A DNA stretch of 30,731 bases from an uncultured Elusimicrobiaceae bacterium (GTDB lineage Bacteria > Elusimicrobiota > Elusimicrobia > Elusimicrobiales > UBA9959). The notes beneath the pieces were generated by a model. It saw only the letters and a program-made list of their open reading frames with translations, searched no databases and had not been told where the DNA came from. Shown here in pieces: positions 9,511-29,319 of the stretch (its first letter is position 1; each line of letters begins with the position of its first letter). A program made the translations under genes and the position numbers. The stretch covers positions 1 to 30,731 of the forward strand of contig CAZYFL010000001.1 in the NCBI GenBank assembly GCA_964646805.1, given 5' to 3'.

Positions 9511-9511
9511 T

Positions 9512-12178: not shown

Positions 12179-12733
12179 ATGAATAAACAGGATAATCTTT
12201 CCGGGTTGCATCCGTCCGAAGAGCGGACGGAATACGATACGGACGGGAAAAGAACGCTGGTGATAGGCTGCGGGAACGTGTTACTCGGCGATGACGGTTT
12301 CGGCCCCGCGGTCATAAAAGCCCTTTCAACCGGGTCCGTGCCGCCGCACGTTGCGCTTATAGACGCCGGCACCGGTATAAGGAAGGTTCTCTTCAATATT
12401 GTGCTTTCAGAGCAAAAACCGGAAAAGATAATTATTCTCGACGCGGTCCGCAAAGAGGGACGCCGGCCGGGAGAAGTGTTTGAGCTGGCGCTAAATGAAA
12501 TGCCGCCGCAAAAGGCGGAGGACTTTTCCGTCCACCACCTGCCCACCACCAATATGCTGCGCGAACTTCAGAAGGACTGTGGCGTAAAAGTAATGATAAT
12601 AGCGGCGCAGGTTGCCATGCTTCCCTGTGAAATGTCCTGTGGTTTATCCGGGCCCGTAGCAAGAGCCGTCCTGAAAGCGAAGAAAATAGCAGCAAGGGAA
12701 CTGTGTGGGCAAACGAGCGGAGTGAGGCAATGA
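12179..12733 (+). CDS. Hydrogenase maturation endopeptidase (HycI/HyaD family)
   Basis: VIGCGNVLLGDDGFG, IDAG, IILDAV and SVHHLP motifs. Directly after mvhA. Confidence 0.92.
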   Translation: MNKQDNLSGLHPSEERTEYDTDGKRTLVIGCGNVLLGDDGFGPAVIKALSTGSVPPHVALIDAGTGIRKVLFNIVLSEQKPEKIIILDAVRKEGRRPGEVFELALNEMPPQKAEDFSVHHLPTTNMLRELQKDCGVKVMIIAAQVAMLPCEMSCGLSGPVARAVLKAKKIAARELCGQTSGVRQ

Positions 12734-14112: not shown

Positions 14113-14121
14113 GGAAGAGCT

Positions 14122-15390: not shown

Positions 15391-15464
15391 GAGAAGTCGG
15401 GTCTCTGTAAACCGGGTTTTCACCCACAGGAAACGGCGAAGACCCACTTTGTATAATTACCCCT

Positions 15465-15869
15465 ATGCATGAATGGGCTTTGGCTGAATCCGTTATAAAA
15501 GCGGCGGTTGAACACGCCGGCGCTGAAAAACTTAAAAAACTTAAAGAGACCGGCGTAGTCTTCGGCGGGCTGCAGGCCATAGACAAAGACGTCTTTGTTT
15601 TCGCGCTGGAGGAGATGCGCAAGCAGTTCCCCTGCGCCAAAGCCTGCAAATTCAAGATAATAAAACAGCCCGCGGCTTTCCGCTGCAAGGCCTGCTCTCA
15701 CGAGTTCACGTTAAAGGGCCTGAAAAAGACAAAAGACGAGGCCGAGTTCATACACTTCGTGCCCGAGATGGCGCATGCCTTCCTGAAATGCCCCAAATGT
15801 AAGAGCCCGGATTTTGAAATTTCCGCCGGGCGCGGCGTCAGTATCAGCTACATCAAGGGGAATAGATGA
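15465..15869 (+). CDS. hypA: Nickel metallochaperone HypA, long Thermococcales-like form
   Basis: MHEWALAESV Ni site, CKAC and CPKC Zn motifs separated by the extended EFIHFVPEMAHAFL segment, and GRGV C-terminus. Confidence 0.92.
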   Translation: MHEWALAESVIKAAVEHAGAEKLKKLKETGVVFGGLQAIDKDVFVFALEEMRKQFPCAKACKFKIIKQPAAFRCKACSHEFTLKGLKKTKDEAEFIHFVPEMAHAFLKCPKCKSPDFEISAGRGVSISYIKGNR

Positions 15870-16726
15870 CTAGCCTGAAAGTTTCAGTTGGCTCGTCTCA
15901 CCGGCGAAAGCCGGTGTCCAGATTCCGACGAGACCTGGATTCCGGCTTTCGCCGGAATGACGGAATAAAAAAATCCGACCCAGCCCGACGATTATGTCAC
16001 TCCAACTGCAATTTTCAGGCTAGTGTTGACCCCAGGCCTTCCGTAATAGAAGAGCGGCTTAAAAAGGTAAAGCGGATCATTGCCGTTACCGGCTGGAAGG
16101 GCGGCATAGGCAAGAGCGTAATTGCCTGCGCGCTGGCGCTGCTGCTTGCAAAAAAGGGCTATAAAACGGGCCTGTTTGATTTGGACTTCGCCGGGGCTTC
16201 CGACCATATAATACTGGGAGCCGGAGGGCTGTTTCCAAAAGAGGAAAAAGGCCTTGAACCGCCGTTGTTTGAAGGCGTGAAGTTTATGTCGGTGGTCTTT
16301 TTCTCGGAGAACAAGGCCGTGCCGCTGCGCGGGGCAAATGTTTCCGACGCAATAATAGAACTGCTGGCTATAACGCAGTGGGGGGAACTGGACTTCCTGG
16401 TGCTGGACATGCCGCCCGGCATAAACGACGCCGCGCTGGATGTCCTGCGCTTCGCGGGAAAGGCCGAAGTGCTGGCCGTGACCACGCCTTCAGTGATAGC
16501 CCGCGACGTGCTGGCGCGGTCGCTGGTTCTTTATCGCGGGCTTAAAGCGCCGGTGCTGGGTGTGTTGGAGAACATGGCGCGCGGCCCGGCGCCAAAGGGC
16601 ATCGCAGCCCGCCTGCGCTTTGATCCCGGGCTTGAAGCGGCGCTTGGCCATCCCGCCGCCCTGATAAAAACCGCTTTTTGCCGCGACCTGATTAGCGCGC
16701 TTAAGATACTTAAACTGGAAGAGTGA
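15866..16726 (+). CDS. hypB: ATPase-type HypB (Mrp/MinD family P-loop ATPase) carrying an in-frame 50-codon MITE insertion
   Basis: DPR..IEERLKKVKRIIAV, deviant Walker A WKGGIGKS, LDLDFAGASDHIILG, PLRG..VSDAIIELL.IT.W.ELDFLVLDMPPG, VLENM. Lacks the CXXC of Fe-S carrier Mrp/ApbC. ATGA-coupled to hypA. Confidence 0.8.
   Translation: MTSLKVSVGSSHRRKPVSRFRRDLDSGFRRNDGIKKSDPARRLCHSNCNFQASVDPRPSVIEERLKKVKRIIAVTGWKGGIGKSVIACALALLLAKKGYKTGLFDLDFAGASDHIILGAGGLFPKEEKGLEPPLFEGVKFMSVVFFSENKAVPLRGANVSDAIIELLAITQWGELDFLVLDMPPGINDAALDVLRFAGKAEVLAVTTPSVIARDVLARSLVLYRGLKAPVLGVLENMARGPAPKGIAARLRFDPGLEAALGHPAALIKTAFCRDLISALKILKLEE
15870..16023. mobile_element. MITE-like element (146 bp plus CTAG duplication) inserted in frame in hypB
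   Basis: ACTAGCCTGAAAGTTTCAGTTGG (15869-15891) and CCAACTGCAATTTTCAGGCTAGT (16002-16024) form a 23-bp inverted repeat with 2 mismatches. CTAG occurs at both ends (15870-15873, 16020-16023). Deleting 150 nt restores ATG ACT AGT GTT GAC CCC AGG (MTSVDPR). Confidence 0.75.
15894..15962. repeat. REP-like palindromic element nested inside the MITE
   Basis: CCGGCGAAAGCCGGtgTCCAG (15901-15921) pairs with CTGGATTCCGGCTTTCGCCGG (15935-15955), with outer CGTC/GACG. Translates as LDSGFRRND, a peptide typical of this palindrome class. Confidence 0.75.
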
Positions 16727-16755
16727 GAATCTTTGTTGAGGCTATGGTTGACGCC

Positions 16756-17274
16756 CTATTTTACTATCTCCCAACTGATGGATAAAGTAATCCTTTCATC
16801 GCTTACCACAACATCCACTTTCTTTGCGCCGTCTTTTGTTCTCTGGTAAGCTTCCGCCATCACATATTGGACTGAATGCATATTCCTGGGAAACATTTCA
16901 ACAACCTTAAAGATTTTAGGATCGCTATCGCCTCTGACCGCCCAATAACTGAAGATCCGGCAACTTCTGTCGTCTTTTTCTACGTTTGCCGATACGGCCC
17001 CTGCCTTCAATCGGCGATACGCTTCGGCCATAAGCGCCTGGTAGGGCGTAGATGCGGGTAATTTTTCTATGCTCAGCATGGTACCGGGTTTATATGTCGC
17101 GGGCATTGGTCCAATTTTTTCCGCAACCTTAACCATTGCAGACGCTGAAGGAACGGCATTTTCCAGCGCCGCCGATGGAACCGCTGATTTAAGTTCCTCA
17201 ATTGCGCTTTCGGAAGCATAAGAGTTTCCAAAAGCTGTTATCGCAAGAACTGCTACAAAGAATACTTTTTTCAT
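16756..17274 (-). CDS. Secreted hypothetical protein with an internal duplication
   Basis: Signal peptide MKKVFFVAVLAITAFGNSYA. Repeats LMAEAYRRLKAGA and VMAEAYQRTKDGA. RBS GGGAGG. Confidence 0.75.
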   Translation of the reverse strand: MKKVFFVAVLAITAFGNSYASESAIEELKSAVPSAALENAVPSASAMVKVAEKIGPMPATYKPGTMLSIEKLPASTPYQALMAEAYRRLKAGAVSANVEKDDRSCRIFSYWAVRGDSDPKIFKVVEMFPRNMHSVQYVMAEAYQRTKDGAKKVDVVVSDERITLSISWEIVK

Positions 17275-17474
17275 AAGACCTCCCAGTGTTTAGCAATACA
17301 CATAGTCTAGCGCAAACAGGGTTTGCGCGTCAGGGTATAAGGGCTCTTTAACTTACGATAACTGCTTGTTTTGTGTGGGTCTTTTGACTGGGCCGCCAGG
17401 CCTATCTACCATGGGTCTTTGTGCCCAATCCAGGAGCCTGCGCGCGGTCTCTTGTCGTTCCCGGAAGCAGCGGC

Positions 17475-18317
17475 TTACAGGGAAGGGGCCGGCGCCAGCG
17501 CCAGGCAGTAGTTTTTAAGGATAAATTTTTCAGAACCGGGAGTGATTCTGCGGAGCTTGCAGACATCGGAGTTGGGGGGACAGAACCGGGCGAGTTCGTT
17601 ATTGGCGGCTGCGTGGCCGGGGCAGTTATCGCAGATGGCGGTCAGAGTTTTCAGGACATGTTTACGTTTCTCTTCCTGCAGTAAACCTAAAAATTTCTTA
17701 ACATCGTCCTTCATGCGGCCGGCGAAGGTGCGCGTGGGATAAACCAGGCTGAGGCGCGGCTTGCACAGTTTCGGCCAGGAATCCACAGCGGCGCCGCCGC
17801 CGTCAAAAATAATCTGAGTGCGGCTTATTACCAGCGCCCGATCGGCAGCGGGGGCGGGGAAGGCGGGGGAATACCTGCTGTGCGAGGTGAAGCCGGCGAA
17901 GAGGTGGTAATCGGACATGCAGGCCGAAATATCAGGATAGACACGCTCGCGCTCCGGGCCGGTTATGAAGGCGCCTTTAACGTCGCCCTCGCCCACAAAA
18001 AAGAAACCGAGTACTCCAGGGCGCATAAGACCGGCCATTACTTCGTCCGCGCTAAGGCCTGTGTGGCCTTCCACCGCGGCGTTCGGGTAAAGTACGGGGA
18101 GCCCGTCGGAGAGCATTGCCCCGACGTCTCCGCAGGCTTTGCCGCTTATCACGTCCTTCATCTTGCCGCCGGGAGAGCAACTGCCCAGGTACACCAGGAA
18201 TTTCCCGGAAGCGCAGAAATTTATGGGCGGGGGTTCGGCGGCCCGTGTGCCGAAGGGTTTAAATTCCGCCTGGGCCGGGGAGACGAGCAGGGCAAGGAAA
18301 AGCAACGTCTTATACAT
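17475..18317 (-). CDS. Secreted Cys-rich hypothetical protein
   Basis: Signal peptide MYKTLLFLALLVSPAQA. 280 aa, about 10 Cys, no family recognised. Confidence 0.7.
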   Translation of the reverse strand: MYKTLLFLALLVSPAQAEFKPFGTRAAEPPPINFCASGKFLVYLGSCSPGGKMKDVISGKACGDVGAMLSDGLPVLYPNAAVEGHTGLSADEVMAGLMRPGVLGFFFVGEGDVKGAFITGPERERVYPDISACMSDYHLFAGFTSHSRYSPAFPAPAADRALVISRTQIIFDGGGAAVDSWPKLCKPRLSLVYPTRTFAGRMKDDVKKFLGLLQEEKRKHVLKTLTAICDNCPGHAAANNELARFCPPNSDVCKLRRITPGSEKFILKNYCLALAPAPSL

Positions 18318-18369
18318 AGGTTCGCGTCATATACGTGAAACAGCGGTCCCCATCATAGTACAAAAATTT

Positions 18370-18378
18370 TGTTATAAT
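18370..18378 (+). promoter_or_regulatory. Extended -10 promoter element for atoDA
   Basis: TG-T-TATAAT, 32 nt upstream of the ATG at 18411, with GGAGGG RBS. Confidence 0.55.
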
Positions 18379-18410
18379 TAGATTTAAGAAATCCTGCGGC
18401 CGGAGGGACG

Positions 18411-19082
18411 ATGAAACCAGTCAGGACTCCTCAACAGGCGGTAGAGAATATAAAAGACGGGGCATCTATAATGGTCGGCGGATTTATTTCCTGCGGGCGC
18501 CCCACAGCCGTCCTTGAAGCCATCCTTGAAAAAGGGATAAAAAACCTTACCATCATCTCCAACGACACCTCAAAAGAGGAAACCGGTATCGTCAGGCTCG
18601 TTATGGAGGGAAGGGTTTCAAAATTCATAGGTTCCTACATCGGGATGAACCGGATAATGAGTGAAAAAATGAAATCAGGGGAAGTGGAAATTGAGCTCGT
18701 GCCCCAGGGTACTTTTGTGGAAAGGATCAGGGCGGCAGGGGCAGGTCTCGGAGGAGTTCTCACCCCCACGGGGCTTGGCACCGCGATTGAGCGGGGAAAG
18801 GAAACGCTGACGATAGACGGCCGCAGGTTCCTGCTTGAAAAACCCCTGAAAGCGGATTTCGCGATTGTTAAAGCGAACAAAGCCGATAAATACGGCAATG
18901 CCTTCGCTTCCGGCTCCTCAAAAAATTTCAACGTCGCCATGTCAATGGCTGCCGACTATGTGATACTTGAAGCGGAAGAGATCGTGGAACCGGGGGAGCT
19001 TGACCCTGAAAAAGTGACCTTCCCATGCGTTTTTATTGATATGCTGGTGCCGGTATCAAAGGGGGGGAACCGGAATGGATGA
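18411..19082 (+). CDS. atoD: Family I CoA-transferase subunit A (acetate/acetoacetate CoA-transferase alpha)
   Basis: IKDGASIMVGGF, KNLTIISND, ELVPQGTFVERIRAAGAGLGGVLTPTGLGT, LEKPLKADFAIVKA. Confidence 0.88.
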   Translation: MKPVRTPQQAVENIKDGASIMVGGFISCGRPTAVLEAILEKGIKNLTIISNDTSKEETGIVRLVMEGRVSKFIGSYIGMNRIMSEKMKSGEVEIELVPQGTFVERIRAAGAGLGGVLTPTGLGTAIERGKETLTIDGRRFLLEKPLKADFAIVKANKADKYGNAFASGSSKNFNVAMSMAADYVILEAEEIVEPGELDPEKVTFPCVFIDMLVPVSKGGNRNG

Positions 19083-19728
19083 TAATATGAGATGCAGGAT
19101 AGCCAGGAGAATAGCCAGGGAATTACCCGGGAACTCAATAGTCAACCTCGGCATCGGGATACCCACCCTGGTCGCTGATTTTATACCCAAAGACAAAGGG
19201 ATACTTTTGCATTCCGAGAACGGGTTTATCGGCCTGGGCGCGGCTCCCGAGCCCGGCAAAGAAGACCCCAATCTTGTGAATGCCGGCGGCCAGGCCGCCA
19301 CCCTCCTGCCGGGAGGATGCTGTTTTGATTCGTCCATGTCTTTCGCGATAGTGCGCGGGAAACACCTGGATTACACAATACTGGGCGCCCTGGAAGTGGA
19401 CGAGGAGGGCAACCTAGCCAACTATACGATCCCGGGAAAATTCGTCCCCGGCATAGGCGGGGCAATGGACCTCTCCGTAGGCGCTAAGAACGTTGTGATC
19501 GCCATGGAACACATGAACAAACACGGTGAGCCGAAGATAGTAAAGAAATGCTCCCTTCCGCTCACTGCGCCGCGGGAAGTAAACCTTATTGTCACCGAGC
19601 TGGCCTTTATAAGGGTTACGCCTGCGGGCCTGGCGCTGGAAGAAATTGCCGAGGACACGACGGTGGAGGAAGTGATAAAGAACACCGGCGCCAGACTTAT
19701 AATAGCGGAAACCCCTGGCCGCTTTTAA
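19075..19728 (+). CDS. atoA: Family I CoA-transferase subunit B
   Basis: Start at ATG 19075. IARRIAREL, VNLGIGIPT, catalytic SENG, GKHLDYTILGALEVD, GIGGAMDL. Confidence 0.88.
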   Translation: MDDNMRCRIARRIARELPGNSIVNLGIGIPTLVADFIPKDKGILLHSENGFIGLGAAPEPGKEDPNLVNAGGQAATLLPGGCCFDSSMSFAIVRGKHLDYTILGALEVDEEGNLANYTIPGKFVPGIGGAMDLSVGAKNVVIAMEHMNKHGEPKIVKKCSLPLTAPREVNLIVTELAFIRVTPAGLALEEIAEDTTVEEVIKNTGARLIIAETPGRF

Positions 19729-19791
19729 GGATTTTAATATCTTTTCCGGCAAGACCAAGATGTCGGTGAAGACCCGAGAGGGAGGAAACCT

Positions 19792-20724
19792 GTGAGCAAC
19801 GAAGTTATTCTCTGGATCGTTTTTAACGTGGTAGTCGCCGGCCTGCTTTATGTGGATCTTAAGGTCATCAACCGCCACGCCCACGTAGTTCCTTTCCGCG
19901 AGGCCGCTTTCTGGAGCGTCGTCTGGATAAGCCTGGCTCTTCTCTTTAATTTCGGGATTTACCACTTTCTGGGCAGGCAAAAAGCCCTGGAATTTCTGAC
20001 AGGTTATATCATTGAAGAAAGCCTCTCGGTGGACAACCTGTTCGTTTTTATCATGATCTTCAGACACTTCGGCATAGAAGCCAAGTACCAGCCCCGCATC
20101 CTCCACTGGGGCATTCTCGGCGCTCTGGTAATGCGCCTTGTTATGATTCTGGCGGGGGCGCATATCTTCAACGCTTTCCACTGGATCATCTATGTATTCG
20201 GGGCGTTCCTTATCTATACCGGAATCAGAATGGGCATGGCCGGGGAGCAGAGGCTTGAGCCGGAAGAAAACGCCGTTCTCCGCCTTTTCAGGAAGTTCCT
20301 TCCGTTCACCAAAGAGATCTCCGGCGAGAGCTTCTTCGTCAGGAACGGCGGCGTCTGGCGCGCGACCCCGCTTTTCGCGGCCCTCATCGTGGTGGAGGCC
20401 TCGGACCTTATCTTCGCGGTGGATTCCATCCCCGCTATCCTGGCTATAACGACCGACACCTTCATTGTTTACACTTCCAACGTCTTCGCTATACTGGGTT
20501 TGAGGGCGCTTTACTTCCTCCTGGCCGGCGTCATGGATATGTTCCGGTATCTGAAAATCGGCCTTTCGGTCATCCTTTGCTATGTAGGAATAAAGATGCT
20601 CCTGACGGATGTTTATAAGATACACACTGGCATCTCGCTGGGAATCGTGCTCGGAATTTTAGCCCTGTCGGTACTGGCCTCCGTTATGATCAGAAAAAAA
20701 CAGGAAGAAGCCAGCCCCTATTAG
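19792..20724 (+). CDS. TerC/Alx family integral membrane protein
   Basis: GYIIEESLSVDNLFVF, ILHWGILGALVMR, EASDLIFAVDSIPAILAIT, TSNVFAILGLRALYF. GTG start with GGAGG RBS. Confidence 0.92.
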   Translation: MSNEVILWIVFNVVVAGLLYVDLKVINRHAHVVPFREAAFWSVVWISLALLFNFGIYHFLGRQKALEFLTGYIIEESLSVDNLFVFIMIFRHFGIEAKYQPRILHWGILGALVMRLVMILAGAHIFNAFHWIIYVFGAFLIYTGIRMGMAGEQRLEPEENAVLRLFRKFLPFTKEISGESFFVRNGGVWRATPLFAALIVVEASDLIFAVDSIPAILAITTDTFIVYTSNVFAILGLRALYFLLAGVMDMFRYLKIGLSVILCYVGIKMLLTDVYKIHTGISLGIVLGILALSVLASVMIRKKQEEASPY

Positions 20725-20730: not shown

Positions 20731-20759
20731 TTGACAACAAAATCAACTTGTGATATAAC
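20731..20759 (+). promoter_or_regulatory. Sigma70 promoter of the dehydrogenase-lyase-CoA transferase-dehydratase operon
   Basis: TTGACA (20731-20736), 17 nt, TG-A-TATAAC (-10 at 20754-20759). RBS AGGAGG before ATG 20803. Confidence 0.75.
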
Positions 20760-20802: not shown

Positions 20803-21939
20803 ATGAGCAGAAAATACAGGATAGCGTGGCTGCCGGGCGACGGTGTAGGCGTGGAAGTGATGGAAGCGGCGAAAATAGTCCTTGACCGCGTTGAGCTTGA
20901 CGCTGAATACATCCACGGCGATATCGGGTGGGAGTTCTGGCGCAGGGAAGGCGACGCTTTCCCTGGCCGTACCGTGGACCTGCTCAAGAGCGTGAACGCA
21001 GCCATGTTCGGCGCCATCACTTCCAAACCTGTAAAGGAAGCCGAGAAGGAACTGATACCCTCGCTGCAGGGCAAGGGCATGGTTTACCGCTCGCCCATAG
21101 TGCGTATGCGCCAGATGTTTGACCTCTACATCTGCCTGCGGCCCTGTAAGGCCTATCCGAAGAACCCGCTCAACTACAAAGAGGGGATAGATATAACGGT
21201 GTTCCGTGAGAACACCGAGGATCTCTATGTGGGTGTGGAATTTAACCCCGTGCCCGATAAACTGCGCGACACGCTTGCGGAACTCGCTCCCGCGTTCAAG
21301 GCGTTCAAGGATCTTAATGGCGGCGATTACGCTATCTCCTGCAAGATAAACACGAGGAAGGGCTCGGAACGTATTGTGCGCGCCGCGTTTGAATTCGCCC
21401 GCAAGTTCAACCGCAAGAAGGTCACTGTAGTGCATAAGGCCAACGTAGTGCGCGCAACGGACGGCCTCTTCCTGGAAACGGCGAAAGCCGTGGCGAAGGA
21501 TTACCCTGAGATAAAGATGGACGACGCGAATATTGACGCTATGACCATGTGGCTGCTTAAGAACCCGTTTGGCTACGACGTGCTGGTAGCCCCTAACCTT
21601 TACGGCGACATAATCTCGGACCTGAGCGCGCAGATGGTGGGCGGACTGGGCTTCGGCTGCTCGGCAAATATAGGCGCGAAGCTCGCGGTGTTTGAACCCT
21701 CTCACGGCTCGGCTCCCAAATACGCGGGACAATACAAAGTAAACCCCATCGCCACCATCCTGGCGGCTAAGATGATGCTTGACTGGCTGGGTGAAACCGC
21801 CAGGGCGAAACTTATAGAAGACGCGGTAGCCGAGGTGATAGCCGAGGGCAAAGCGCGCACCTATGATATGGGCGGCTCCGCCACCACTATAGGGATGGCG
21901 CGGGCTATAGCTGATAAGTGCGTGGTAGCTGCAAAATGA
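20803..21939 (+). CDS. Isocitrate/isopropylmalate dehydrogenase family protein, homoisocitrate-dehydrogenase-like
   Basis: IAWLPGDGVGVEV, FGAITS, RSPIVRMRQMFDLYICLRP, FRENTEDLY, VTVVHKANV, PNLYGDIISDL, FEPSHGSAPKYAG. Start taken at ATG 20803. Confidence 0.88.
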   Translation: MSRKYRIAWLPGDGVGVEVMEAAKIVLDRVELDAEYIHGDIGWEFWRREGDAFPGRTVDLLKSVNAAMFGAITSKPVKEAEKELIPSLQGKGMVYRSPIVRMRQMFDLYICLRPCKAYPKNPLNYKEGIDITVFRENTEDLYVGVEFNPVPDKLRDTLAELAPAFKAFKDLNGGDYAISCKINTRKGSERIVRAAFEFARKFNRKKVTVVHKANVVRATDGLFLETAKAVAKDYPEIKMDDANIDAMTMWLLKNPFGYDVLVAPNLYGDIISDLSAQMVGGLGFGCSANIGAKLAVFEPSHGSAPKYAGQYKVNPIATILAAKMMLDWLGETARAKLIEDAVAEVIAEGKARTYDMGGSATTIGMARAIADKCVVAAK

Positions 21940-22859
21940 CGGACACGGCGCGGCCCTCAAAAGCCCTCCTGCTTCACGAGGTTGGGCTGCGGGACGGCCT
22001 GCAGATGGAAAGCCGGGTCGTCCCTCTTGAAAAGAAAGCGGCCTGGCTCGCCGACCTGATGGGATCCGGTGTGGACGTAATCCAGGCAGGCTCGTTTGTC
22101 CACCCCGGGAAAGTTCCCCAGATGGCGGATACGGACGAATTGTTCCGTCGGTTCACGTCGGATAAAAAATCTCCGGCTGTCCTGTCAGGACTGGTACTTA
22201 ACGAAAAAGGACTGGAGCGCGGGCTCGCCTGCGGCGTTGAGCTGTTCTGTATGGGCGCTTCCGCCAGCGAAACCCACAGCCTCAAGAACACCGGTATGGG
22301 AACCGACGAAGCCGTCCCGCGCATTATCGCCGCTGCGAAAACAGCGGCAGCCGCCGGCAAAAAAGTGCAGGTATCAGTCCAATCCGCGTTCGGTTGCGGT
22401 TTTGAGGGCCGGATTCCAGAGGAGCGCGTACTGAAAATTGTGCGCGCTTATGTTGAAGCGGGCTTGCGCAATATCAGCCTTGCCGATACCGCAGGGCACG
22501 CCCACCCGGCTCAGGTGGAGCGCATGTTCAGCGCTGTTCTGGCGCTGGATCCGGAAGTAGACTGCGCCTGCCATTTCCATAACACCTATGGGCTGGGCAT
22601 GGCTAATATATTCGCGGCTATGCGGGCCGGTGTCACCTCGTTTGAGACGTCATTTGCCGGCCTCGGCGGTTGCCCTTTTACCAAAGTGGCAGCCGGCAAC
22701 GTGGCTACCGAGGACTTCGTCCATGTCCTTCAACTGGAAGGGTTGCGCAAAGAAGTCAGCCTGGACCGTCTGCTTGCCGTAGCCCGCGACGCAGCCTCAT
22801 ATTTCGGTCGCGACATGCAGGGTTTCGTATACAAGACAGGGGCGATACCAGGCATTTAA
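21936..22859 (+). CDS. Hydroxymethylglutaryl-CoA lyase-like (DRE-TIM metallolyase)
   Basis: HEVGLRDGLQ, SLADTAG, HFHNTYG, GLGGCPF..AAGNVATED. ATGA overlap at 21936. Confidence 0.88.
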   Translation: MTDTARPSKALLLHEVGLRDGLQMESRVVPLEKKAAWLADLMGSGVDVIQAGSFVHPGKVPQMADTDELFRRFTSDKKSPAVLSGLVLNEKGLERGLACGVELFCMGASASETHSLKNTGMGTDEAVPRIIAAAKTAAAAGKKVQVSVQSAFGCGFEGRIPEERVLKIVRAYVEAGLRNISLADTAGHAHPAQVERMFSAVLALDPEVDCACHFHNTYGLGMANIFAAMRAGVTSFETSFAGLGGCPFTKVAAGNVATEDFVHVLQLEGLRKEVSLDRLLAVARDAASYFGRDMQGFVYKTGAIPGI

Positions 22860-22868
22860 GGAGCGAGT

Positions 22869-24068
22869 ATGAGCAAACAGATCCTTTCCGGAGTGAGGGT
22901 GCTTGACCTTACTAATGTACTGTCGGGACCTTTCGCCACTCTCCACCTCGCGCTGCTCGGCGCCGAGGTAATAAAAATTGAGAATCCCAAAGACGGAGAC
23001 CTCGCCCGCAAGCTGGGCGTGATGCCGGCCCTGAACGACCAGCTGATGGGCACGAGCTTTCTGGCCCAGAACGCCAATAAAAAATCGGTAACCCTGAACA
23101 CCAAGACCAGCGAAGGCAGGGAAATCTTCAGGAAACTGGCGAAGACCGCGGATGTGCTGGTGGAGAATTTCCGCCCCGACGTGATGGACCGCCTGGGCCT
23201 CGGCTACAAAACCCTTTCCGGAATCAATCCCCGCCTAGTGTACTGCTCCATTTCAGGCTTCGGGCAGACGGGCCCCGACGCTTTCAAGCCCGCTTATGAC
23301 CAGATTATTCAGGGACTGAGCGGCGTCATGGACATCAACGGCGACGAGCGCCTGAACCCGTTGCGCGCGGGCTTCCCGATATGTGATACGGTGGGGGGGC
23401 TAAATGCCGCTTTCGCGATAATGGCGGCCCTCTATCATCGCGAACACAGCGGGAAGGGGCAGTTCATAGATATAGCCATGCTGGATTCCATAATGCCCCT
23501 GATGGGTTGGGTGGCGGCGAACCTGCTTATCGCCGGTCAGAAGCCGGCGCCGATGGGCAACGACAATTTCACCGCCGCCCCCTCGGGGACGTTCAAAACC
23601 CTGGACGGCTACATTAACATAGCCGCCAACAAGCAGGAACAGTGGGAATCGCTCTGCGACGTAGTAGGAATAGTTGACCTGAAGGCGGACCCCCGCTTTG
23701 AAAAACGCGACATTCGCAAGAAGAATCGCAAGCTCCTGACTCCGCTGATAGAAGAAAAACTCGCGCAGCGTTCCACGGCGGAGTGGGTGGATCTTCTCAA
23801 TGCCAAAGATGTGCCGAGCGGAGCTATTTTAAGTCTGGAAGCCGCCCTGAACCAGCCCCAGATAAGACACAGGGCGATACTTAAAGAGGTAACGGAGCAA
23901 GGCATCGGAACTCTTAAACTGTTCGGGCTTGCGGCCCAGTTTTCCGATACGCCGGGCGAACTTAACGCGCCGCCCCCGCGCCTTTCGGCCCACACGGCGG
24001 AAGTTCTTGCGGCCCTCGGCATAAAGGATGAAGAGTTTGCAGCCCTGAAAGCGAATAAAATTATCTGA
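22869..24068 (+). CDS. Family III (CaiB/BaiF) CoA-transferase
   Basis: LSGVRVLDL, SGPFATLHLALLGAEVIKIE, NANKKSVTLN, DVLVENFRP, ISGFGQTGP, AYDQIIQGLSG, catalytic Asp in ICDTVGG. Confidence 0.92.
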   Translation: MSKQILSGVRVLDLTNVLSGPFATLHLALLGAEVIKIENPKDGDLARKLGVMPALNDQLMGTSFLAQNANKKSVTLNTKTSEGREIFRKLAKTADVLVENFRPDVMDRLGLGYKTLSGINPRLVYCSISGFGQTGPDAFKPAYDQIIQGLSGVMDINGDERLNPLRAGFPICDTVGGLNAAFAIMAALYHREHSGKGQFIDIAMLDSIMPLMGWVAANLLIAGQKPAPMGNDNFTAAPSGTFKTLDGYINIAANKQEQWESLCDVVGIVDLKADPRFEKRDIRKKNRKLLTPLIEEKLAQRSTAEWVDLLNAKDVPSGAILSLEAALNQPQIRHRAILKEVTEQGIGTLKLFGLAAQFSDTPGELNAPPPRLSAHTAEVLAALGIKDEEFAALKANKII

Positions 24069-24086
24069 GATTGGAGACTGAGCGCT

Positions 24087-25376
24087 ATGCAAATGACCTA
24101 TGTACAGAAACTGCTGGCCCGTACCACCGGCCGGACCCATGTGGCCGTGGGTGATGTGCTTGAGCCGGAAGTCCACCTGGCGATGTCGCACGAGAACGGC
24201 GCGCTGGTGATAAACCAATTTAACGGGATCTTTGAGGGCGCCGGCCGCGAAGCGAAGGTCTGGAACCCGGACCGTATCGCTATAATCTTCGACCACCGCG
24301 TGCCCGCCGAATCCTCCAAGACCGCCGGCAACCAAAAGAAAACGCGCGAGTTCGTGGCGAAGCAGGGCATACGGAAATTCCACGATATCCGCGGCGATGT
24401 GGGCGGTATCTGCCACCAGATACTGCCTGAGAACGGCTATGTGCGGCCAGGCAGCATCGTCGTGGGCACCGACAGCCACACAACCACGCACGGCGCGCTG
24501 GGCGCGTTCGCGTTCGGGGTAGGCGCCACCGAGATGGCTTCCGTCTGGGCTCTGGGGCGGATACTTAACGTGGAAGTCCCGGCCACCATTAAGGTGACGG
24601 TAAACGGAAAATTCCCCGGGTACGTCTATCCGAAAGATCTGATACTCCACATAATAGGCCTCCTGAGCGCCCAGGGAGCCAACTACAAGGCGCTGGAATT
24701 CCACGGCGATACCATCCACGGTATGTCCACCTCAGGTCGCCTGGTGCTTTGCAACATGAGCGTTGAAGCCGGCGCCACCTCCGGGCTGGTTCCGCCCGAC
24801 GAGGAAACCCTGCGCTATCTCCGCGATGAAGCCGGGATAAAGGACAAGCTGGATATTTTCGGACCCGACCCCGACGCTGTCTACGAACAGGTATTAGCTG
24901 TAGACGCCTCAAAGCTTACCCCGCAGATAGCCTGCCCGCACACCGTTGACAATGTAAAACCGATCGGCGAAGTTAAGGGGAAAAAACTCGACCAGATCGT
25001 AATAGGTTCATGCACCAACGGGCGCCTGGACGATCTTGAAGTTGCGGCAAAAATACTGAGAGGCCGCCGTGTTGCCGACGGCACGCGCATGCTGGTCTTC
25101 CCTGCATCGTGGCGCATTTATCACAAAGCCATGGACCTTGGCTTTATACAGGAGCTTTCCCGGGCCGGCGCGGTAGTCTGCAACCCCGGCTGCGGGCCGT
25201 GCCTCGGCATACACCAGGGGGCGCTAGCCGATAACGAAGTTGCGCTGGCAACCACCAACCGCAATTTCAAGGGACGCATGGGCAACCCGAAAGCCGAGGT
25301 TTACCTGTGCTCTCCGGCGGTAGCGGCGGCGAGCGCCATCACGGGCGTAATAACGGATCCCAGGGAGGCAAAATGA
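24087..25376 (+). CDS. leuC: 3-isopropylmalate dehydratase / homoaconitase family large subunit
   Basis: IFDHRVP, GICHQ, GTDSHTTTHGALG, IGSCTNGR, NPGCGPCLG, TTNRNFKGRMG, SPAVAAASA. Substrate specificity (LeuC vs HacA) is not determinable. Confidence 0.88.
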   Translation: MQMTYVQKLLARTTGRTHVAVGDVLEPEVHLAMSHENGALVINQFNGIFEGAGREAKVWNPDRIAIIFDHRVPAESSKTAGNQKKTREFVAKQGIRKFHDIRGDVGGICHQILPENGYVRPGSIVVGTDSHTTTHGALGAFAFGVGATEMASVWALGRILNVEVPATIKVTVNGKFPGYVYPKDLILHIIGLLSAQGANYKALEFHGDTIHGMSTSGRLVLCNMSVEAGATSGLVPPDEETLRYLRDEAGIKDKLDIFGPDPDAVYEQVLAVDASKLTPQIACPHTVDNVKPIGEVKGKKLDQIVIGSCTNGRLDDLEVAAKILRGRRVADGTRMLVFPASWRIYHKAMDLGFIQELSRAGAVVCNPGCGPCLGIHQGALADNEVALATTNRNFKGRMGNPKAEVYLCSPAVAAASAITGVITDPREAK

Positions 25377-25873
25377 CCACCAGGAAAGTAGCGCTGAAAG
25401 TTTCAGACGACGTGTCTACCGACATAATTTACCCCGGGCGGTTCATGGCCACGGTTCTCCCCGCCGAAACGCCGCAGTTCGCTTTTGCCGACAATGCGGA
25501 CTTCAACAGCAAACTCAAAGGGGGGGAAATACCCTCCGGCAGCGTTATTGTGGCCGGCAGGAACTTCGGCTGCGGCTCCTCCAGGGAGCAGGCGGTTTCC
25601 TGCCTTAAGGGCTACGACCTTGCGATTGTGGCGCGCGACATCTCCCGCATTTTCCTCCAGAGCGCGATCAACCTGGGGCTGAACATAATTATCTGCCCGG
25701 AAATAGAGGCCGCTGAAGGCGAAGATCTGGAGTTCGCGGAGGAGAAGGTCTTCAACCGCACTTCAGGGAAATCATTCGCTACAAACCCGCTCCCGAAAGC
25801 GCGCCAGGCCATTATTGACGCGGGCGGCCTGATCCCGTACACCCGGAAATTGATGATGGAGACACGCTCTTAA
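25373..25873 (+). CDS. leuD: 3-isopropylmalate dehydratase / homoaconitase family small subunit
   Basis: Start at ATG 25373 (ATGA overlap). DDVSTDIIYPG, AGRNFGCGSSREQA, SRIFLQSAINLGL, IIDAGGLIPY. Confidence 0.88.
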   Translation: MTTRKVALKVSDDVSTDIIYPGRFMATVLPAETPQFAFADNADFNSKLKGGEIPSGSVIVAGRNFGCGSSREQAVSCLKGYDLAIVARDISRIFLQSAINLGLNIIICPEIEAAEGEDLEFAEEKVFNRTSGKSFATNPLPKARQAIIDAGGLIPYTRKLMMETRS

Positions 25874-25918: not shown

Positions 25919-26881
25919 ATGACAGAGCTGTTATCGGTGCAAGTATTCCTCGCCGTAGTCACCGCGCTTTTCTATATTGAGGCCAGGCTGCTGCTCCACG
26001 CGTGGCTCCATAGGCGCCAAAAGCCGCGGCCTGGGTTCTGGCCGCGCCTGGGTTCAACATTCAACAGGCGGTTCAGCCGCATTTTCCACACGGCCGCGGT
26101 ATTCGGTGCGGGATGCATCCTCTACGGCTTCTTTATTGAACCGTCCTGGATTGAGGTTAAGACGGTCCGGCTCTCGTCGCCTGGAATATTTCCATCATCA
26201 GGACCGATCCGGATCGTGCATCTTTCCGACCTGCATTCTGAGGCGGAACCTCTGAACGAGCCGGCCGCCATGGGGCTGGTGAATAGTCTCAAGCCGGACA
26301 TCGTGGTAGTCACCGGCGATTATCTCAATACAACGGAGGGCATCCCGGTGGTCAGACGCATGCTCTCAGCTCTTACGGCTCCATACGGCGTGTTCTGCAT
26401 AACCGGAAACTACGATTTACAGGTACCGGCTCCAGGGCTATTTAACGGTCTGCCTGTGCGGCGACTGGACAAAAGCGCAGCGATTTTGGACATACGCGGC
26501 ACAAAAATACGCGTCATCGGGCTCGAAATTAATTCGGGTTCATATTTCAAACGCCTGATGGCGGATTTGGGTCCCTCTCCGGGCTATGATGTCCTCCTCC
26601 ATCATTACTCAGACCTTGTCTATGAGGCGGATAAGGCCGGCATAGACCTCTATCTTTCCGGCCATACCCACGGCGGGCAGATACGGCTGCCATTCTACGG
26701 CGCGCTGATTACTTTGGCTACTTTCGGAAAGCGTTTCGAGAGCGGCCTGTATCGGGTTGGCAGATCCGCGCTGTATGTGAACCGCGGGCTGGGCATGGAG
26801 GGAGGGATAGCGCCCAAAGTGCGCTTCCTTTGCAGGCCGGAGATTACAGTGTTTGAAATATCGGCCGGCAAAAATCACTAG
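25919..26881 (+). CDS. Membrane-anchored calcineurin-like metallophosphoesterase (YkuE/YaeI type)
   Basis: N-terminal TM helices, then HLSDLH, TGDY, GNYD (canonical GNHD), LLHH, SGHTHGGQI, VNRGLG. Confidence 0.85.
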   Translation: MTELLSVQVFLAVVTALFYIEARLLLHAWLHRRQKPRPGFWPRLGSTFNRRFSRIFHTAAVFGAGCILYGFFIEPSWIEVKTVRLSSPGIFPSSGPIRIVHLSDLHSEAEPLNEPAAMGLVNSLKPDIVVVTGDYLNTTEGIPVVRRMLSALTAPYGVFCITGNYDLQVPAPGLFNGLPVRRLDKSAAILDIRGTKIRVIGLEINSGSYFKRLMADLGPSPGYDVLLHHYSDLVYEADKAGIDLYLSGHTHGGQIRLPFYGALITLATFGKRFESGLYRVGRSALYVNRGLGMEGGIAPKVRFLCRPEITVFEISAGKNH

Positions 26882-26934: not shown

Positions 26935-27399
26935 ATGATCCCGAATCTTACAGCGGAGACTGGAAACCGGAGCAAAGCATGTATCTTAAGAGGAGGCACA
27001 GTCGCACTACTTCTCTTCGGAGCAGGTCATCTATGCGGGTGGGCGGCCTGGAATATGCCGGTACGCTTCTCAGATTGCTCCAGTTTCCTGTCAAGACCCA
27101 AAGAATGTCTGGCATCGGGGGAAGATTGGAATGACCCCCAGGCCCGCGAGAGAGCGGAGAAAAGGGCCAGCTTGCATGCGCGCTGGTCGTTCATCATGCT
27201 GCCGGCTCTTCTTCTTTCCGGTATTCTTTTTGTTCCAGTATATGCGTTGGCGCTCCTGGTTCCTCCTCCACAACACGGCTTCCTATGGCACATCCTTGCC
27301 GCCGGACTCTACTTTACTCTCGGGGCGATTGTTGCCTGCTGGAGAGCACGGCGGGCTGACGCGTATAAGCGGGAAAGCATAAGCGGAAAAAACAGCTAA
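26935..27399 (+). CDS. Hypothetical membrane protein
   Basis: 154 aa with three hydrophobic segments and GGAGG RBS. Confidence 0.6.
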   Translation: MIPNLTAETGNRSKACILRGGTVALLLFGAGHLCGWAAWNMPVRFSDCSSFLSRPKECLASGEDWNDPQARERAEKRASLHARWSFIMLPALLLSGILFVPVYALALLVPPPQHGFLWHILAAGLYFTLGAIVACWRARRADAYKRESISGKNS

Positions 27400-27480: not shown

Positions 27481-29319
27481 ATGAAAGGATGGGTAGGGAA
27501 TATTCTCAGGGTCAACCTGACGGCCAAAACATATAAAAAAGAACCCTTCAGCGAAGAATTCGCCAAAACCTGGGTGGGCGGGCGCGGCTTTGCCGTTAAG
27601 ATTCTCTACGACGAACTAAAACCGGGAATAGACCCTCTCGGCCCGGAAAACAAACTGGTGGTCGCCCTCGGGCCGATTTCCGGCATCCCGGCTCCCAATA
27701 CCGGCAAGGCGGTCGTAGCCGCCAAGTCGCCCCTTACCGGCTTCTATGGCGACGGGAACGTGGGCACAAAAGTTTCCGATCAGCTCCGCAAAGCCGGGTA
27801 CGACGCTTTGATTGTTGAAGGCAGGGCTGAAACCCCGACAATGCTTTATATTGAGGACGACAAGGTGGAGTTCCTCGCCGCCGGCGAGGTCTGGGGCAAA
27901 GGCACTTACGCCACTAACGACTGGGTCTACGGGAAATACGGCAAGACCGTTGGAGTCCTGAACATAGGCCAGGGCGGAGAAAATATGGTGCGCTACGCCG
28001 TAGTGCGCAGCCTGGAAGGGCGCGCAGGCGGCCGGCCGGGCATAGGCGCGGTAATGGGCTCCAAGCTCCTCAAGGTCATTGTGGTAAAGGGTACGCAGGC
28101 AATTCCCCAGGCCGATCCCGAAGCCATGAAAGCGCTGGGCTTCGGAGATCTGAAAACGGTGCACGAGATGGACAAAAAATCGGGCTGGTCCATCCAGAGC
28201 ACCAACGGCGTGCTGGCCTGGTGCAACGAAGTGGCGGGACTTCCCGTACAAAACTTCCGCAAGACCAGCCACCCTGAGGCGCATAAGATAGACGGCGAGC
28301 GGCTCAACGAAGCCAGGGTGGCTACCTATGGCTGCCCGAGCTGTACCATGAAGTGCGGCATAACCATTCACGACAAAGAGGGCCGCGAGTCCGAGCTTGA
28401 CTACGAAAATGTCGGCCTCCTGGGTTCTAACCTGAATATCTTTGACCTTGACCAGGTAGGCTCCCTGAACTACCTCTGCGACGAGTACGGCCTGGATACT
28501 ATGTCAGCCGGCTGTACCCTCAGCTTCTACGCCGATGCCATCGCCCGCGGCGCCACGACCGGCGATTTTAAGTTCGGCGACGCCGAACGCGCAAAAGAGT
28601 TGCTGAGGCTGGCCGCGCACCGCGAAGGGAAAGTAGGCAATCTCCTGGCCGACGGCTCCCTGCGCATGGCTAAAGAATTCGGGCATAACTCCGAAGCTTA
28701 CGCTATGCAGGTAAAGGGCCTGGATGTGGCCGCCTACAACTGCAAATTCATCCCCGGCCAGGCGCTGTCCTTCGGCGTGGCCCCCATAGGGGCGCACCAC
28801 AGGGAAGCGTGGATAATCACCTTCGAACTTAAGAACAGCTCCCGCGACTCCTACGGGCCCGAAAAGGCGGCCAAGGTGATAGAACTGCAACGCATCCGCG
28901 GCGGCATGTTTGAGTTCATGGTTGCCTGCCGCTTTCCCTGGATAGAACTTGGGTGGCAACTGGATAACTACCCAAAATATTTCAACCTTGTTACCGGCCT
29001 GAACTGGACTCTGGATGACATGTGGAAAGTGGCCGACCGTATCTACGCCCTGATAAAGCTCCATTATATCAGGGAATTCCCTGACGCGACGCGCAAGGGC
29101 GATTATCCTCCGGCTGTCTGGTTTGACCCGGACAACTCCGACGCCGAAGGGCCTATAGCCGGAAAACACCTGGAGGCGGACAAGTACGACCGGCTTCTCC
29201 AGCACTATTATGACCAGCGCGGCTACGACAAGCGCGGCATTCCGACCAGGGCGACGCTGGAAAAACTCAGCCTCACCCGCGAAGGCGCCGATGCCGAAAA
29301 ATACGCGAAGCTGGCTTAG
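27481..29319 (+). CDS. Aldehyde:ferredoxin oxidoreductase family (W/Mo-bispterin), formaldehyde-oxidoreductase (FOR)-like
   Basis: ILRVNLT, GGRG, AAKSPLTG.YGDGN.G, EGRAGGRPGIGAVMGSK, GCPSCTMKCG, ESELDYENV.LLGSNL, DEYGLDTMS, GAHHREAW, ACRFPW. Candidate promoter TTGTCA-16-TATAAA at 27408-27435. Confidence 0.92.
   Translation: MKGWVGNILRVNLTAKTYKKEPFSEEFAKTWVGGRGFAVKILYDELKPGIDPLGPENKLVVALGPISGIPAPNTGKAVVAAKSPLTGFYGDGNVGTKVSDQLRKAGYDALIVEGRAETPTMLYIEDDKVEFLAAGEVWGKGTYATNDWVYGKYGKTVGVLNIGQGGENMVRYAVVRSLEGRAGGRPGIGAVMGSKLLKVIVVKGTQAIPQADPEAMKALGFGDLKTVHEMDKKSGWSIQSTNGVLAWCNEVAGLPVQNFRKTSHPEAHKIDGERLNEARVATYGCPSCTMKCGITIHDKEGRESELDYENVGLLGSNLNIFDLDQVGSLNYLCDEYGLDTMSAGCTLSFYADAIARGATTGDFKFGDAERAKELLRLAAHREGKVGNLLADGSLRMAKEFGHNSEAYAMQVKGLDVAAYNCKFIPGQALSFGVAPIGAHHREAWIITFELKNSSRDSYGPEKAAKVIELQRIRGGMFEFMVACRFPWIELGWQLDNYPKYFNLVTGLNWTLDDMWKVADRIYALIKLHYIREFPDATRKGDYPPAVWFDPDNSDAEGPIAGKHLEADKYDRLLQHYYDQRGYDKRGIPTRATLEKLSLTREGADAEKYAKLA

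Follow-up and report, generated by a model that had tools for sequence, protein, structure and literature searches.

We describe a five-gene module on the + strand of a 30,731-nucleotide window from an uncultured Elusimicrobiaceae bacterium (contig CAZYFL010000001.1, assembly GCA_964646805.1). The module encodes a beta-decarboxylating dehydrogenase, a lyase resembling 3-hydroxy-3-methylglutaryl-CoA (HMG-CoA) lyase, a family III CoA-transferase and the two subunits of a LeuCD-like dehydratase. The best explanation of this combination is that it links a 2-oxoacid to a 2-oxoacid shorter by one carbon plus acetyl-CoA, by way of a tertiary hydroxy acid handled as its free CoA ester. The version that we favour, with about an even chance of being correct, is a catabolic one which runs from 2-oxoadipate through homoisocitrate, homocitrate and homocitryl-CoA to 2-oxoglutarate and acetyl-CoA. 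Gene content, synteny, families, conserved motifs, neighbourhoods and genome inventories are observed; from them we infer which substrate is used and in which direction, what donates the CoA, and each of the catalytic steps.

In the proposed scheme the dehydrogenase would carboxylate 2-oxoadipate reductively, with CO2 and NAD(P)H, to homoisocitrate, which the LeuCD-like enzyme would convert through cis-homoaconitate to homocitrate. The family III CoA-transferase would then place CoA from succinyl-CoA or acetyl-CoA onto homocitrate, and the HMG-CoA-lyase-like enzyme would cleave the resulting homocitryl-CoA to acetyl-CoA and 2-oxoglutarate. The transferase–lyase pair would act like citrate lyase or like citryl-CoA synthetase and citryl-CoA lyase (CCS/CCL), with free CoA and without ATP. 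In sister Elusimicrobiota, lysine would be converted via saccharopine to aminoadipate semialdehyde by lysine-ketoglutarate reductase (LKR) and saccharopine dehydrogenase (SDH); the semialdehyde would be oxidised to 2-aminoadipate by an aldehyde:ferredoxin oxidoreductase (AOR) or an L-piperidine-6-carboxylate (P6C) dehydrogenase, and an aminotransferase would give 2-oxoadipate. The broader claim is that of a widespread catabolic route which takes its 2-oxoadipate mainly from lysine, bypasses glutaryl-CoA, fixes one CO2 and returns the 2-oxoglutarate used in the saccharopine step; here too we see the chances for and against as evenly matched.

The five-gene module and its conservation

The window spans one contig of 30.7 kb from end to end; the assembly to which it belongs, referred to as G000, measures 2.57 Mb and is 92.7% complete. 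The other carriers searched were G001 (Gemmatimonadales), G002 (Gammaproteobacteria), G003 (Elusimicrobiales) and G004 (Terriglobia). The module and its presumed promoter are as follows.

20731..20759, + strand: promoter-like TTGACA-17 nt-TATAAC, read from the sequence, 44 nt before the first ATG
20803..21939, + strand: beta-decarboxylating dehydrogenase of the Iso_dh family, 378 aa (PF00180, 296.8 bits)
21936..22859, + strand: lyase of the HMG-CoA lyase (DRE-TIM) family, 307 aa (PF00682, 140 bits; NF004283, 260 bits)
22869..24068, + strand: family III (CaiB/BaiF) CoA-transferase, 399 aa (PF02515, 415.8 bits, full length)
24087..25376, + strand: aconitase-family large subunit, LeuC/HacA-like, 429 aa (TIGR01343 hacA_fam, 517 bits)
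25373..25873, + strand: small subunit, LeuD/HacB-like, 166 aa (TIGR02087, 103.9 bits)

All five genes are intact and lie on one strand between 20803 and 25873. The sequence-only reading of this DNA had named the same five genes with overlapping or near-adjacent stops and starts, and both statements hold: the family profiles match, dehydrogenase and lyase overlap by 4 nt (ATGA), as do LeuC and LeuD, and the remaining two gaps measure 9 and 18 nt. It had also reported the lack of a homocitrate or isopropylmalate synthase, and indeed no LeuA/CimA/NifV-type protein is found in the window. An AGGAGG ribosome-binding site precedes the ATG of the dehydrogenase, 3' of the promoter-like site. That site does not appear in the list of the consensus promoter scan, because the scan rule needs a T at position 6 of the second hexamer and this hexamer ends in C. 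The consensus scan gave no convincing internal promoter or + strand terminator within the operon. There is no terminator after LeuD, so transcription may run on, and it is plausible that the five genes form one transcription unit read from one promoter.

The distribution scan covered one genome per species, and a close relative of the lyase was found in at least 550 genomes. All five genes occur in the order of the window in 53 of the 80 best genome loci, from about ten phyla and with 60-90% identity; most of the remaining loci among the 80 have a length at which a contig end may have truncated them. The carriers belong to Elusimicrobiota, Eisenbacteria, Gemmatimonadota, Gammaproteobacteria (Lysobacterales, Woeseiaceae), Acidobacteriota, Ignavibacteria, Latescibacterota, Myxococcota and others, and the closest lyase relatives of the window are labelled as Elusimicrobiota from groundwater. 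The five-gene linkage, on whose conservation the sequence-only reading had made its proposal depend, is conserved across phyla and is far beyond chance. The genes flanking the cassette are wholly different between lineages and its occurrence is patchy (16 of 401 sampled Elusimicrobiota, 5 of 281 Gemmatimonadota); the cassette therefore behaves as a self-contained accessory module. Clustering of the neighbours over the 80 genome loci returned lineage-specific neighbours plus a divergent LysR regulator only.

Some loci depart from this arrangement. Two 12.9-kb loci (L043 and L080) contain the lyase and CoA-transferase as a pair, about 70% identical, with no dehydrogenase or LeuCD genes within the flanks, so the pair can occur apart from the other three genes. 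In the operon of L256 (G327:C68:9000-28900, about 9300-19900) an insertion of about 10.5 kb separates LeuC from the CoA-transferase; among the inserted genes are one for a FlgD_ig/CHU_C protein and a 957-aa open reading frame (ORF) with no family match.

Lysine genes and variant architectures in relatives

Genes for LKR and SDH are found 3-90 nt after LeuD in seven Elusimicrobiota loci (L148/L172, which are one place, L171, L018, L020, L179 and L031). Where the flank reaches far enough (L148/L172 and L171), SDH is followed by AOR and then by a ThiS-like gene. Seven other loci have a GabT-like class III aminotransferase directly after LeuD, often followed by AOR, and in two loci AOR alone directly follows LeuD; overall, AOR is located 3' of the module in L148, L171, L008, L167, L166, L005 and L009. 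On the model for 2-aminoadipate transaminase the GabT-like enzyme reaches 370 bits, which falls short of the cut-off. The LKR is a 442-aa AlaDh_PNT protein which matches the LKR domain of human AASS over its full length with 283 bits, against 52 bits for fungal Lys1. The SDH, a 450-aa Sacchrp_dh protein, matches saccharopine reductase and the SDH domain of AASS with 306-334 bits, the value for saccharopine reductase being 334. LKR is carried by 8 of 401 Elusimicrobiota genomes; in seven of these the contig that bears LKR also bears the module, while the remaining one, G348, has a CCS/CCL variant of it. LysA (diaminopimelate decarboxylase) is above cut-off in G003 and in all five LKR-plus-module genomes tested; lysine synthesis by the diaminopimelate route is in place.

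Three further architectures are found. At L255 (G178:C299:35000-51660, 3110-14922) the gene order is ScoA, ScoB, P6C dehydrogenase, LKR, SDH, lyase, CoA-transferase, LeuC, LeuD and dehydrogenase. The P6C dehydrogenase (L-piperidine-6-carboxylate/aminoadipate-semialdehyde dehydrogenase) of this locus scores 739 bits on NF050084 (cut-off 730), and its module proteins are 42-69% identical to those of L148 (LeuD 42%, LeuC 52%); with identities this low, L255 resembles an ancient lineage of the cassette, apart from the main family. L254 (G348:C141:25000-44900, 1880-13517), from another Elusimicrobiota family, has LKR, SDH and P6C dehydrogenase beside LeuCD-like genes and a dehydrogenase which is 59% identical to that of the window and has the same insertions and SPIV segment. 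The place of the transferase and lyase is taken there by two succinyl-CoA-synthetase-like subunits, one of them with the Citrate_bind domain of ATP-citrate lyase, and by a citryl-CoA lyase homologue (219 bits on NF004869, cut-off 212). This is a non-orthologous, ATP-driven replacement of an activate-then-cleave step; it argues for a citrate-like tricarboxylate and for the direction of cleavage, and since the swap occurs beside the same types of dehydrogenase and LeuCD it ties the transferase–lyase pair to the other three genes. On the metagenome contig L228 (1884-11260), from another lineage, the CoA-transferase is missing; the remaining four genes (dehydrogenase, lyase, LeuC and LeuD) are followed by Liv-type ABC (amino-acid) transporter genes, and a P6C dehydrogenase homologue, 61% identical to that of L254, and an EamA transporter are divergent from them. 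Taken together, the three architectures make the link to lysine harder to dismiss as inherited synteny.

Outside Elusimicrobiota, P6C dehydrogenase is above cut-off in 29 of 50 (58%) module-bearing genomes of other phyla. As background, it is found in 59 of 281 Gemmatimonadota, in 37 of 201 genomes of the class of G002 and in one of the 14 genomes of the control set. A Sacchrp_dh gene adjoins the P6C dehydrogenase in G002.

The genes on either side of the module in the window are listed below.

18411..19728, + strand: 3-oxoacid/acetate CoA-transferase subunits A and B, family I, ScoAB-like (pcaI_scoA_fam 233 bits, pcaJ_scoB_fam 289 bits, both above cut-offs)
19792-20724: TerC-family membrane protein gene, between the ScoAB-like genes and the module
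25919-26881, + strand: metallophosphoesterase (Pfam Metallophos, 48 bits; YaeI/LpxG-like, a weak match)
26935-27399, + strand: 154-aa ORF with no family match
27481..29319, + strand: AOR of the tungsten type with AFOR_N and AFOR_C domains, associated with the module but outside the five genes

ScoAB genes are also located 5' of the module in the Elusimicrobiota loci L006, L008, L009, L013, L014, L018, L148 and L255. The distance from the end of ScoB to the start of the dehydrogenase is about 100-135 nt in L006, L008, L013 and L018; the TerC gene intervenes in the window. This transferase possibly serves in CoA recycling. On the 3' side, the metallophosphoesterase and the 154-aa ORF occupy the slot which in relatives holds LKR and SDH or the class III aminotransferase, and they are found beside the module in none of about 160 other loci. 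The AOR of the window is 87% identical to that of L148, which comes after LKR and SDH in the L148 operon, and the same glycosyltransferase gene lies 3' of AOR in both. We propose, from this correspondence, that the AOR of the window may oxidise aminoadipate semialdehyde to 2-aminoadipate.

Substrate and direction

Concerning the dehydrogenase, the best NCBIfam matches are AksF2 homoisocitrate dehydrogenase (335 bits, cut-off 540) and LEU3_arch (322 bits), with all equivalog models below cut-off, and the best match in the PDB is the homoisocitrate dehydrogenase (HICDH) of T. thermophilus (246 bits). The sequence-only reading had singled out the segment RSPIVRMR as closer to HICDH than to isopropylmalate dehydrogenase (IPMDH) or isocitrate dehydrogenase (ICDH). 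The segment is present, YRSPIVRMR is invariant in 82 of 84 orthologues, and the remark fits the homocitrate and homoisocitrate substrates favoured here. It aligns with R112-S113-L-N115-V-A-L-R119 of E. coli ICDH; of Ser113 and Asn115, to which the gamma-carboxylate binds in ICDH, the first is kept and the second replaced by Ile, Ala117 is replaced by Arg, and the DLYICLRP segment of the E. coli enzyme is also kept. With T. thermophilus HICDH, P-I-V-R-M-R aligns with A-I-R85-Y-L-R88, and Ile84 and Ser72 are matched. The protein falls outside the characterised HICDHs (AksF2 score; Val for Arg85), outside the ICDHs of the Iso_dh type (Ile for Asn115; ICDH equivalogs all below cut-off) and outside the IPMDHs (TIGR00169 206 bits, cut-off 353; R-S-P-I-V where the hydrophobic Glu87-x-x-Leu90-Leu91 pocket is expected, with Arg at the Glu87 position). 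It is the sole PF00180 member in G000 and in G003. Our proposal is that it may be a homoisocitrate dehydrogenase which works in the direction of reductive carboxylation of 2-oxoadipate. When the full library was searched with its sequence, the matches were mainly fragments and unrelated fusion proteins: four of 715-764 aa (P0141, P0143, P0145 and P0158), about 40% identical to it and fused to a MoCF_biosynth (molybdopterin-binding) domain, and one of 614 aa (P0142), also about 40% identical and fused to an RraA-like aldolase domain.

The lyase belongs to the HMG-CoA lyase family (PF00682 140 bits, cut-off 29; subfamily model NF004283 260 bits, cut-off 246), and among PDB entries it is closest to the HMG-CoA lyase of B. 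subtilis (1ydo, 195 bits). Its RDGLQ, HFHNT (HxH metal ligands) and GLGGCP motifs align with the HMG-CoA lyases of B. subtilis and A. baumannii, and the catalytic signature RDGLQ, HFH(N/D)TY and GLGGCP is kept in 105-109 orthologues. No leucine-catabolic neighbour of the lyase was found in any locus examined. The CoA-transferase is a family III member (PF02515, 415.8 bits across profile positions 1-366) whose best PDB match is human SUGCT, a succinate-hydroxymethylglutarate CoA-transferase (9br6, 267 bits); the SUGCT equivalog NF052585 scores 313.8 bits against a cut-off of 750. The motif GFP(V/I)CDTVG, which we take to hold the catalytic Asp of family III, is kept in 107 orthologues. We propose that these two proteins could be a homocitryl-CoA lyase and a (succinyl- or acetyl-)CoA:homocitrate CoA-transferase, respectively.

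The dehydratase is a two-subunit enzyme of the homoaconitase/isopropylmalate isomerase type, with a large subunit above cut-offs and a separate small subunit adjoining. The large subunit scores 552 bits on PRK00402, 521 on IPMI_arch TIGR02086 (cut-off 410) and 517 on hacA_fam TIGR01343 (cut-off 385.7), and contains the Cys-bearing segments GSCTN and CNPGCGPC. The small subunit is just below the cut-off of TIGR02087 (103.9 against 108.95 bits), and its best PDB match is the isopropylmalate/citramalate isomerase of M. jannaschii (3vba, 98.7 bits). Its specificity loop, PGRFMAT, is invariant in 139 of 141 orthologues; the loops compared with it are PARYLVY in 3vba, PGPYLRT in M. jannaschii homoaconitase (2pkp) and PGRYNLT in P. 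horikoshii (1v7l). A homoaconitase of the methanogen type is not indicated, the loop reading FMAT and not YLRT and the HacA_Meth and HacB models scoring below cut-off. The loop Arg is also lacking in the P. horikoshii subunit (YNLT) and in the lysine-linked L254 (YNIT) and L255 (FLNIT), and its absence is therefore not diagnostic. Overall, the residue evidence is mixed and not decisive: it appears compatible with homoisocitrate and homoaconitate, and fits isocitrate or isopropylmalate poorly.

The genome inventories narrow the possible uses. IlvC was not found in G000-G004 (KARI_N at most 34 bits, TIGR00465 at most 29 bits), and was positive in all 14 control genomes. Biosynthesis of leucine or isoleucine through a synthase substitute was rejected for G000-G004 on this ground. 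Lacking ketol-acid reductoisomerase, the five carriers, including the 5.9-Mb Terriglobia genome, may be branched-chain amino acid auxotrophs living on peptides; genes for peptidases and oligopeptide transporters are frequent among the neighbours. The sequence-only reading had pointed to LysW-type lysine genes and canonical synthases as the genes to look for in the genome. LysX was not found in G000-G004 (at most 42 bits, cut-off 275.6) and no LeuA/CimA/NifV-type synthase in G000, so that LysW-type aminoadipate lysine biosynthesis is not indicated; G004 carries a canonical leuA-leuC-leuB cluster besides the module. The whole G000 genome has two PF00682 matches, both of the lyase type. The second of these (contig C203, L092:107-3592) is 56% identical to the L148 module lyase and lies in a cluster, cut by the contig end, with an acyl-CoA dehydrogenase, a protein of the PEP-mutase/isocitrate-lyase family and MmgE/PrpD; the cluster may encode a further pathway, in which a branched dicarboxylate is handled as CoA esters. 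G000 and G003 both have citrate synthase, AcnA, a second aconitase-like protein and a monomeric ICDH (>1260 bits). The module is thus not needed as a branch of the citric-acid cycle there, and the idea that its dehydrogenase is the ICDH of the cell was rejected on account of the monomeric enzyme. A Sacchrp_dh_NADP protein adjoins a LysA-like decarboxylase in G000 (C158:1419-4046), and likewise in G003 (C32) and G002 (C3); the pair looks like carboxy(nor)spermidine dehydrogenase and decarboxylase and not like saccharopine metabolism. The frames of the LysA-like decarboxylase in G000 and G003 each contain one TAA.

The catabolic direction is favoured because relatives fuse the operon to LKR, SDH and P6C dehydrogenase, because the ATP-dependent CCS/CCL swap spends ATP on activation, because the five lysine-gene carriers tested keep LysA, because LysX was not found in G000-G004, because three loci have, in the place of AOR, a P6C dehydrogenase of the oxidative ALDH type, and because the LKR resembles the catabolic animal type. 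The divergent LysR, the sole recurrent neighbour elsewhere, was also counted among the grounds for degradation. The sequence-only reading had put a CoA-transferase and a lyase in the place of the synthase, and had offered either a thioester-conserving synthase substitute or the elongation pathway run backwards. This interpretation is supported in part: its chemical logic stands, it had left substrate and direction open, and our evidence favours homocitrate/homoisocitrate and prefers the catabolic option to the synthase substitute.

Several observations weigh against catabolism of 2-oxoadipate through homocitryl-CoA. Arg85 of T. thermophilus HICDH, which binds the distal carboxylate, is Val in the module dehydrogenase; the additional Arg that the family has in the place of ICDH Ala117 gives way to Leu in L255; Arg26 of M. 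jannaschii HacB, which also binds the distal carboxylate, is Ala in the loop of the LeuD-like subunit; and every HICDH and homoaconitase equivalog model is below cut-off. In the random sample of Gemmatimonadota one of five module carriers has P6C dehydrogenase, which equals the background rate of 21%, and about 40% of carriers overall are without it, so that it is an enrichment and not a rule. The fusion to lysine genes is seen in Elusimicrobiota and in one unplaced metagenome contig, with LysR as the only recurrent neighbour elsewhere, and since related genomes are not independent these counts overstate the support. In G000 itself (92.7% complete) no LKR, SDH, P6C dehydrogenase or close aminotransferase homologue was found; the module and the AOR would therefore need 2-aminoadipate, its semialdehyde or 2-oxoadipate from elsewhere, or, alternatively, the cassette has lost its entry steps in this genome.

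Among the other explanations, an ATP-free citrate version would take 2-oxoglutarate through isocitrate, citrate and citryl-CoA to oxaloacetate and acetyl-CoA, in the catabolism of glutamate and 2-oxoglutarate or as a branch of a reductive citric-acid cycle. Two points in its favour tell at the same time against homocitrate: by chemical reasoning citryl-CoA is the closest analogue of HMG-CoA, with the methyl group replaced by a carboxylate, and would suit an HMG-CoA-lyase-like enzyme, and the L254 homologues are those named citryl-CoA synthetase and lyase and include Citrate_bind. The dehydrogenase also retains Ser113 and DLYICLRP of E. coli ICDH, T. thermophilus HICDH also uses isocitrate, and the saccharopine route releases two glutamates per lysine, which makes the handling of 2-oxoglutarate beside lysine genes conceivable. 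We nevertheless consider this version unlikely: Asn115 of ICDH is Ile and there is no Arg at the HICDH-85 position, AcnA, the second aconitase-like protein and the monomeric ICDH are already present in G000 and G003, the benefit to aerobic carriers that have the complete cycle would be small, and the 2-oxoadipate formed by the co-operonic LKR, SDH and P6C dehydrogenase would be left without an enzyme in the operon. Doubtful too is a citramalate version, in which 2-oxobutyrate is interconverted with pyruvate and acetyl-CoA by a Chloroflexus-like transferase and lyase, for the disposal of 2-oxobutyrate from threonine or methionine or for the degradation of citraconate or citramalate. The same two families carry out EC 2.8.3.20 and EC 4.1.3.46, the small subunit has the isopropylmalate/citramalate isomerase 3vba as its best PDB match (98.7 bits) and a loop without Arg, and Val at the HICDH-85 position is IPMDH-like. 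However, the missing loop Arg is shared with 1v7l, L254 and L255, the position of Glu87 of IPMDH is Arg with the adjacent ICDH-type Ser kept, and the citrate-binding domain of the CCS/CCL replacement points to a tricarboxylate. Biosynthetic use of citramalate for isoleucine is excluded in G000-G004, which lack IlvC, and no gene of threonine or methionine metabolism is linked to the module, the informative neighbours all being lysine/aminoadipate genes.

A biosynthetic direction, which we regard as very improbable, would condense acetyl-CoA with 2-oxoglutarate, conserve the thioester through the transferase and supply 2-oxoadipate for lysine, with AOR as aminoadipate reductase followed by saccharopine reductase and saccharopine dehydrogenase. 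The L148 operon alone covers the fungal-type pathway completely but for the aminotransferase, enzymes of the AOR type are able to use low-potential ferredoxin for the reduction of acids, and no LysA orthologue was found in G000. Set against these are the LysA of G003 and of the LKR-plus-module genomes, the oxidative NAD(P)-dependent ALDH-type P6C dehydrogenase in the place of AOR in L254, L255 and L228, an LKR which is like the catabolic AASS domain and unlike fungal Lys1, the ATP spent on activation in the CCS/CCL variant, as in cleavage, and the lack of LKR/SDH and LysX in G000; condensation without thioester hydrolysis would moreover be thermodynamically weak. Least probable of all, in our view hardly credible, is that the lyase and CoA-transferase act on HMG and HMG-CoA and that the dehydratase and dehydrogenase serve an unrelated substrate, the ScoAB-like transferase activating, in Elusimicrobiota, the acetoacetate formed. 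The nearest PDB relatives are indeed SUGCT (267 bits) and HMG-CoA lyases (195 bits), the lyase passes NF004283, a 3-oxoacid CoA-transferase is located 5' of the module in Elusimicrobiota, and the pair stands alone within the 12.9 kb of L043 and L080. Yet the strict five-gene order, conserved with translational coupling across phyla, makes such independent use unlikely, and the swap in L254 binds the pair to its partners. Further, HMG is chemically implausible as an aconitase-family substrate, its carbinol carbon carrying no carboxylate, and no leucine-catabolic genes such as methylcrotonyl-CoA carboxylase are nearby. Some explanation other than these five readings is in our judgement unlikely.

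Relation to known pathways

The fate of 2-aminoadipate and 2-oxoadipate is poorly known in many bacteria with saccharopine or P6C steps, and the textbook continuation from 2-oxoadipate needs 2-oxoadipate dehydrogenase and glutaryl-CoA dehydrogenase. If the favoured homocitryl-CoA route is correct, lysine carbon would have a new central route, encoded by a cassette that occurs in at least 550 genomes of a one-genome-per-species collection and whose genes at present bear the names of enzymes for leucine, HMG-CoA, oxalate or carnitine. It would include a new enzyme activity, homocitryl-CoA lyase, and a natural ATP-free, free-CoA analogue of citrate lyase that would be useful in pathway design, and it would show how chain elongation, a biosynthetic pathway, can be put to use in the opposite direction. 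Metabolic models built from genomes would then have to be corrected for Elusimicrobiota, Gemmatimonadota, Acidobacteriota and Gammaproteobacteria of soil or sediment. Full-text literature searches returned nothing on homocitryl-CoA, homocitrate lyase or the five-gene combination, and two papers on itaconate and C5-dicarboxylates are silent about the cassette.

The first half of the alpha-aminoadipate pathway of Thermus, Pyrococcus and fungi has the same intermediates as those proposed here and uses the same isomerase and dehydrogenase families. The module differs from it in having a CoA-transferase and an HMG-CoA-lyase-type lyase instead of homocitrate synthase, in its proposed reversed direction, and in lacking the LysW/LysX partners and the specificity Arg residues. 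Citrate lyase (CitDEF) and the CCS/CCL of Hydrogenobacter-type reductive cycles follow the same logic of thioester formation and retro-Claisen cleavage to an acetyl-thioester and a 2-oxoacid. The enzymes of the module belong to unrelated families, would use free CoA and not an acyl carrier protein, would work without ATP, and probably act on a substrate one carbon longer.

To our knowledge, Sct and Ccl of Chloroflexus aurantiacus are the only characterised pair in which a CoA-transferase of family III works with a member of the HMG-CoA lyase family on a 2-substituted malate; they were reportedly described by Friedmann et al. in 2006/2007 as succinyl-CoA:(R)-citramalate CoA-transferase and (R)-citramalyl-CoA lyase. 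We know of no report that places the Chloroflexus pair in a constant operon together with genes like those for LeuCD and LeuB. Citramalyl-CoA lyase and citramalate CoA-transferase (EC 4.1.3.46 and EC 2.8.3.20) have also been proposed in a review as a theoretical indirect route to citramalate (PMC8307300). The likeness of the module pair to Sct/Ccl, for which there is no NCBIfam model, is a resemblance to their published descriptions, and the context of the module points to a C7 tricarboxylate and lysine instead. HMG-CoA lyase and SUGCT provide the nearest solved structures, with about 40% identity by eye and the catalytic motifs kept; the context of the module is not that of leucine catabolism or ketogenesis.

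A further known system is saccharopine lysine catabolism (AASS/LKR-SDH and ALDH7A1/P6C dehydrogenase), for which relatives hold clear LKR, SDH and P6C dehydrogenase homologues within the operon. In anaerobic relatives a tungsten AOR takes the place of the aldehyde dehydrogenase of that pathway. The known continuation is oxidative decarboxylation to glutaryl-CoA, whereas that proposed for the module would be carboxylation followed by cleavage to 2-oxoglutarate and acetyl-CoA.

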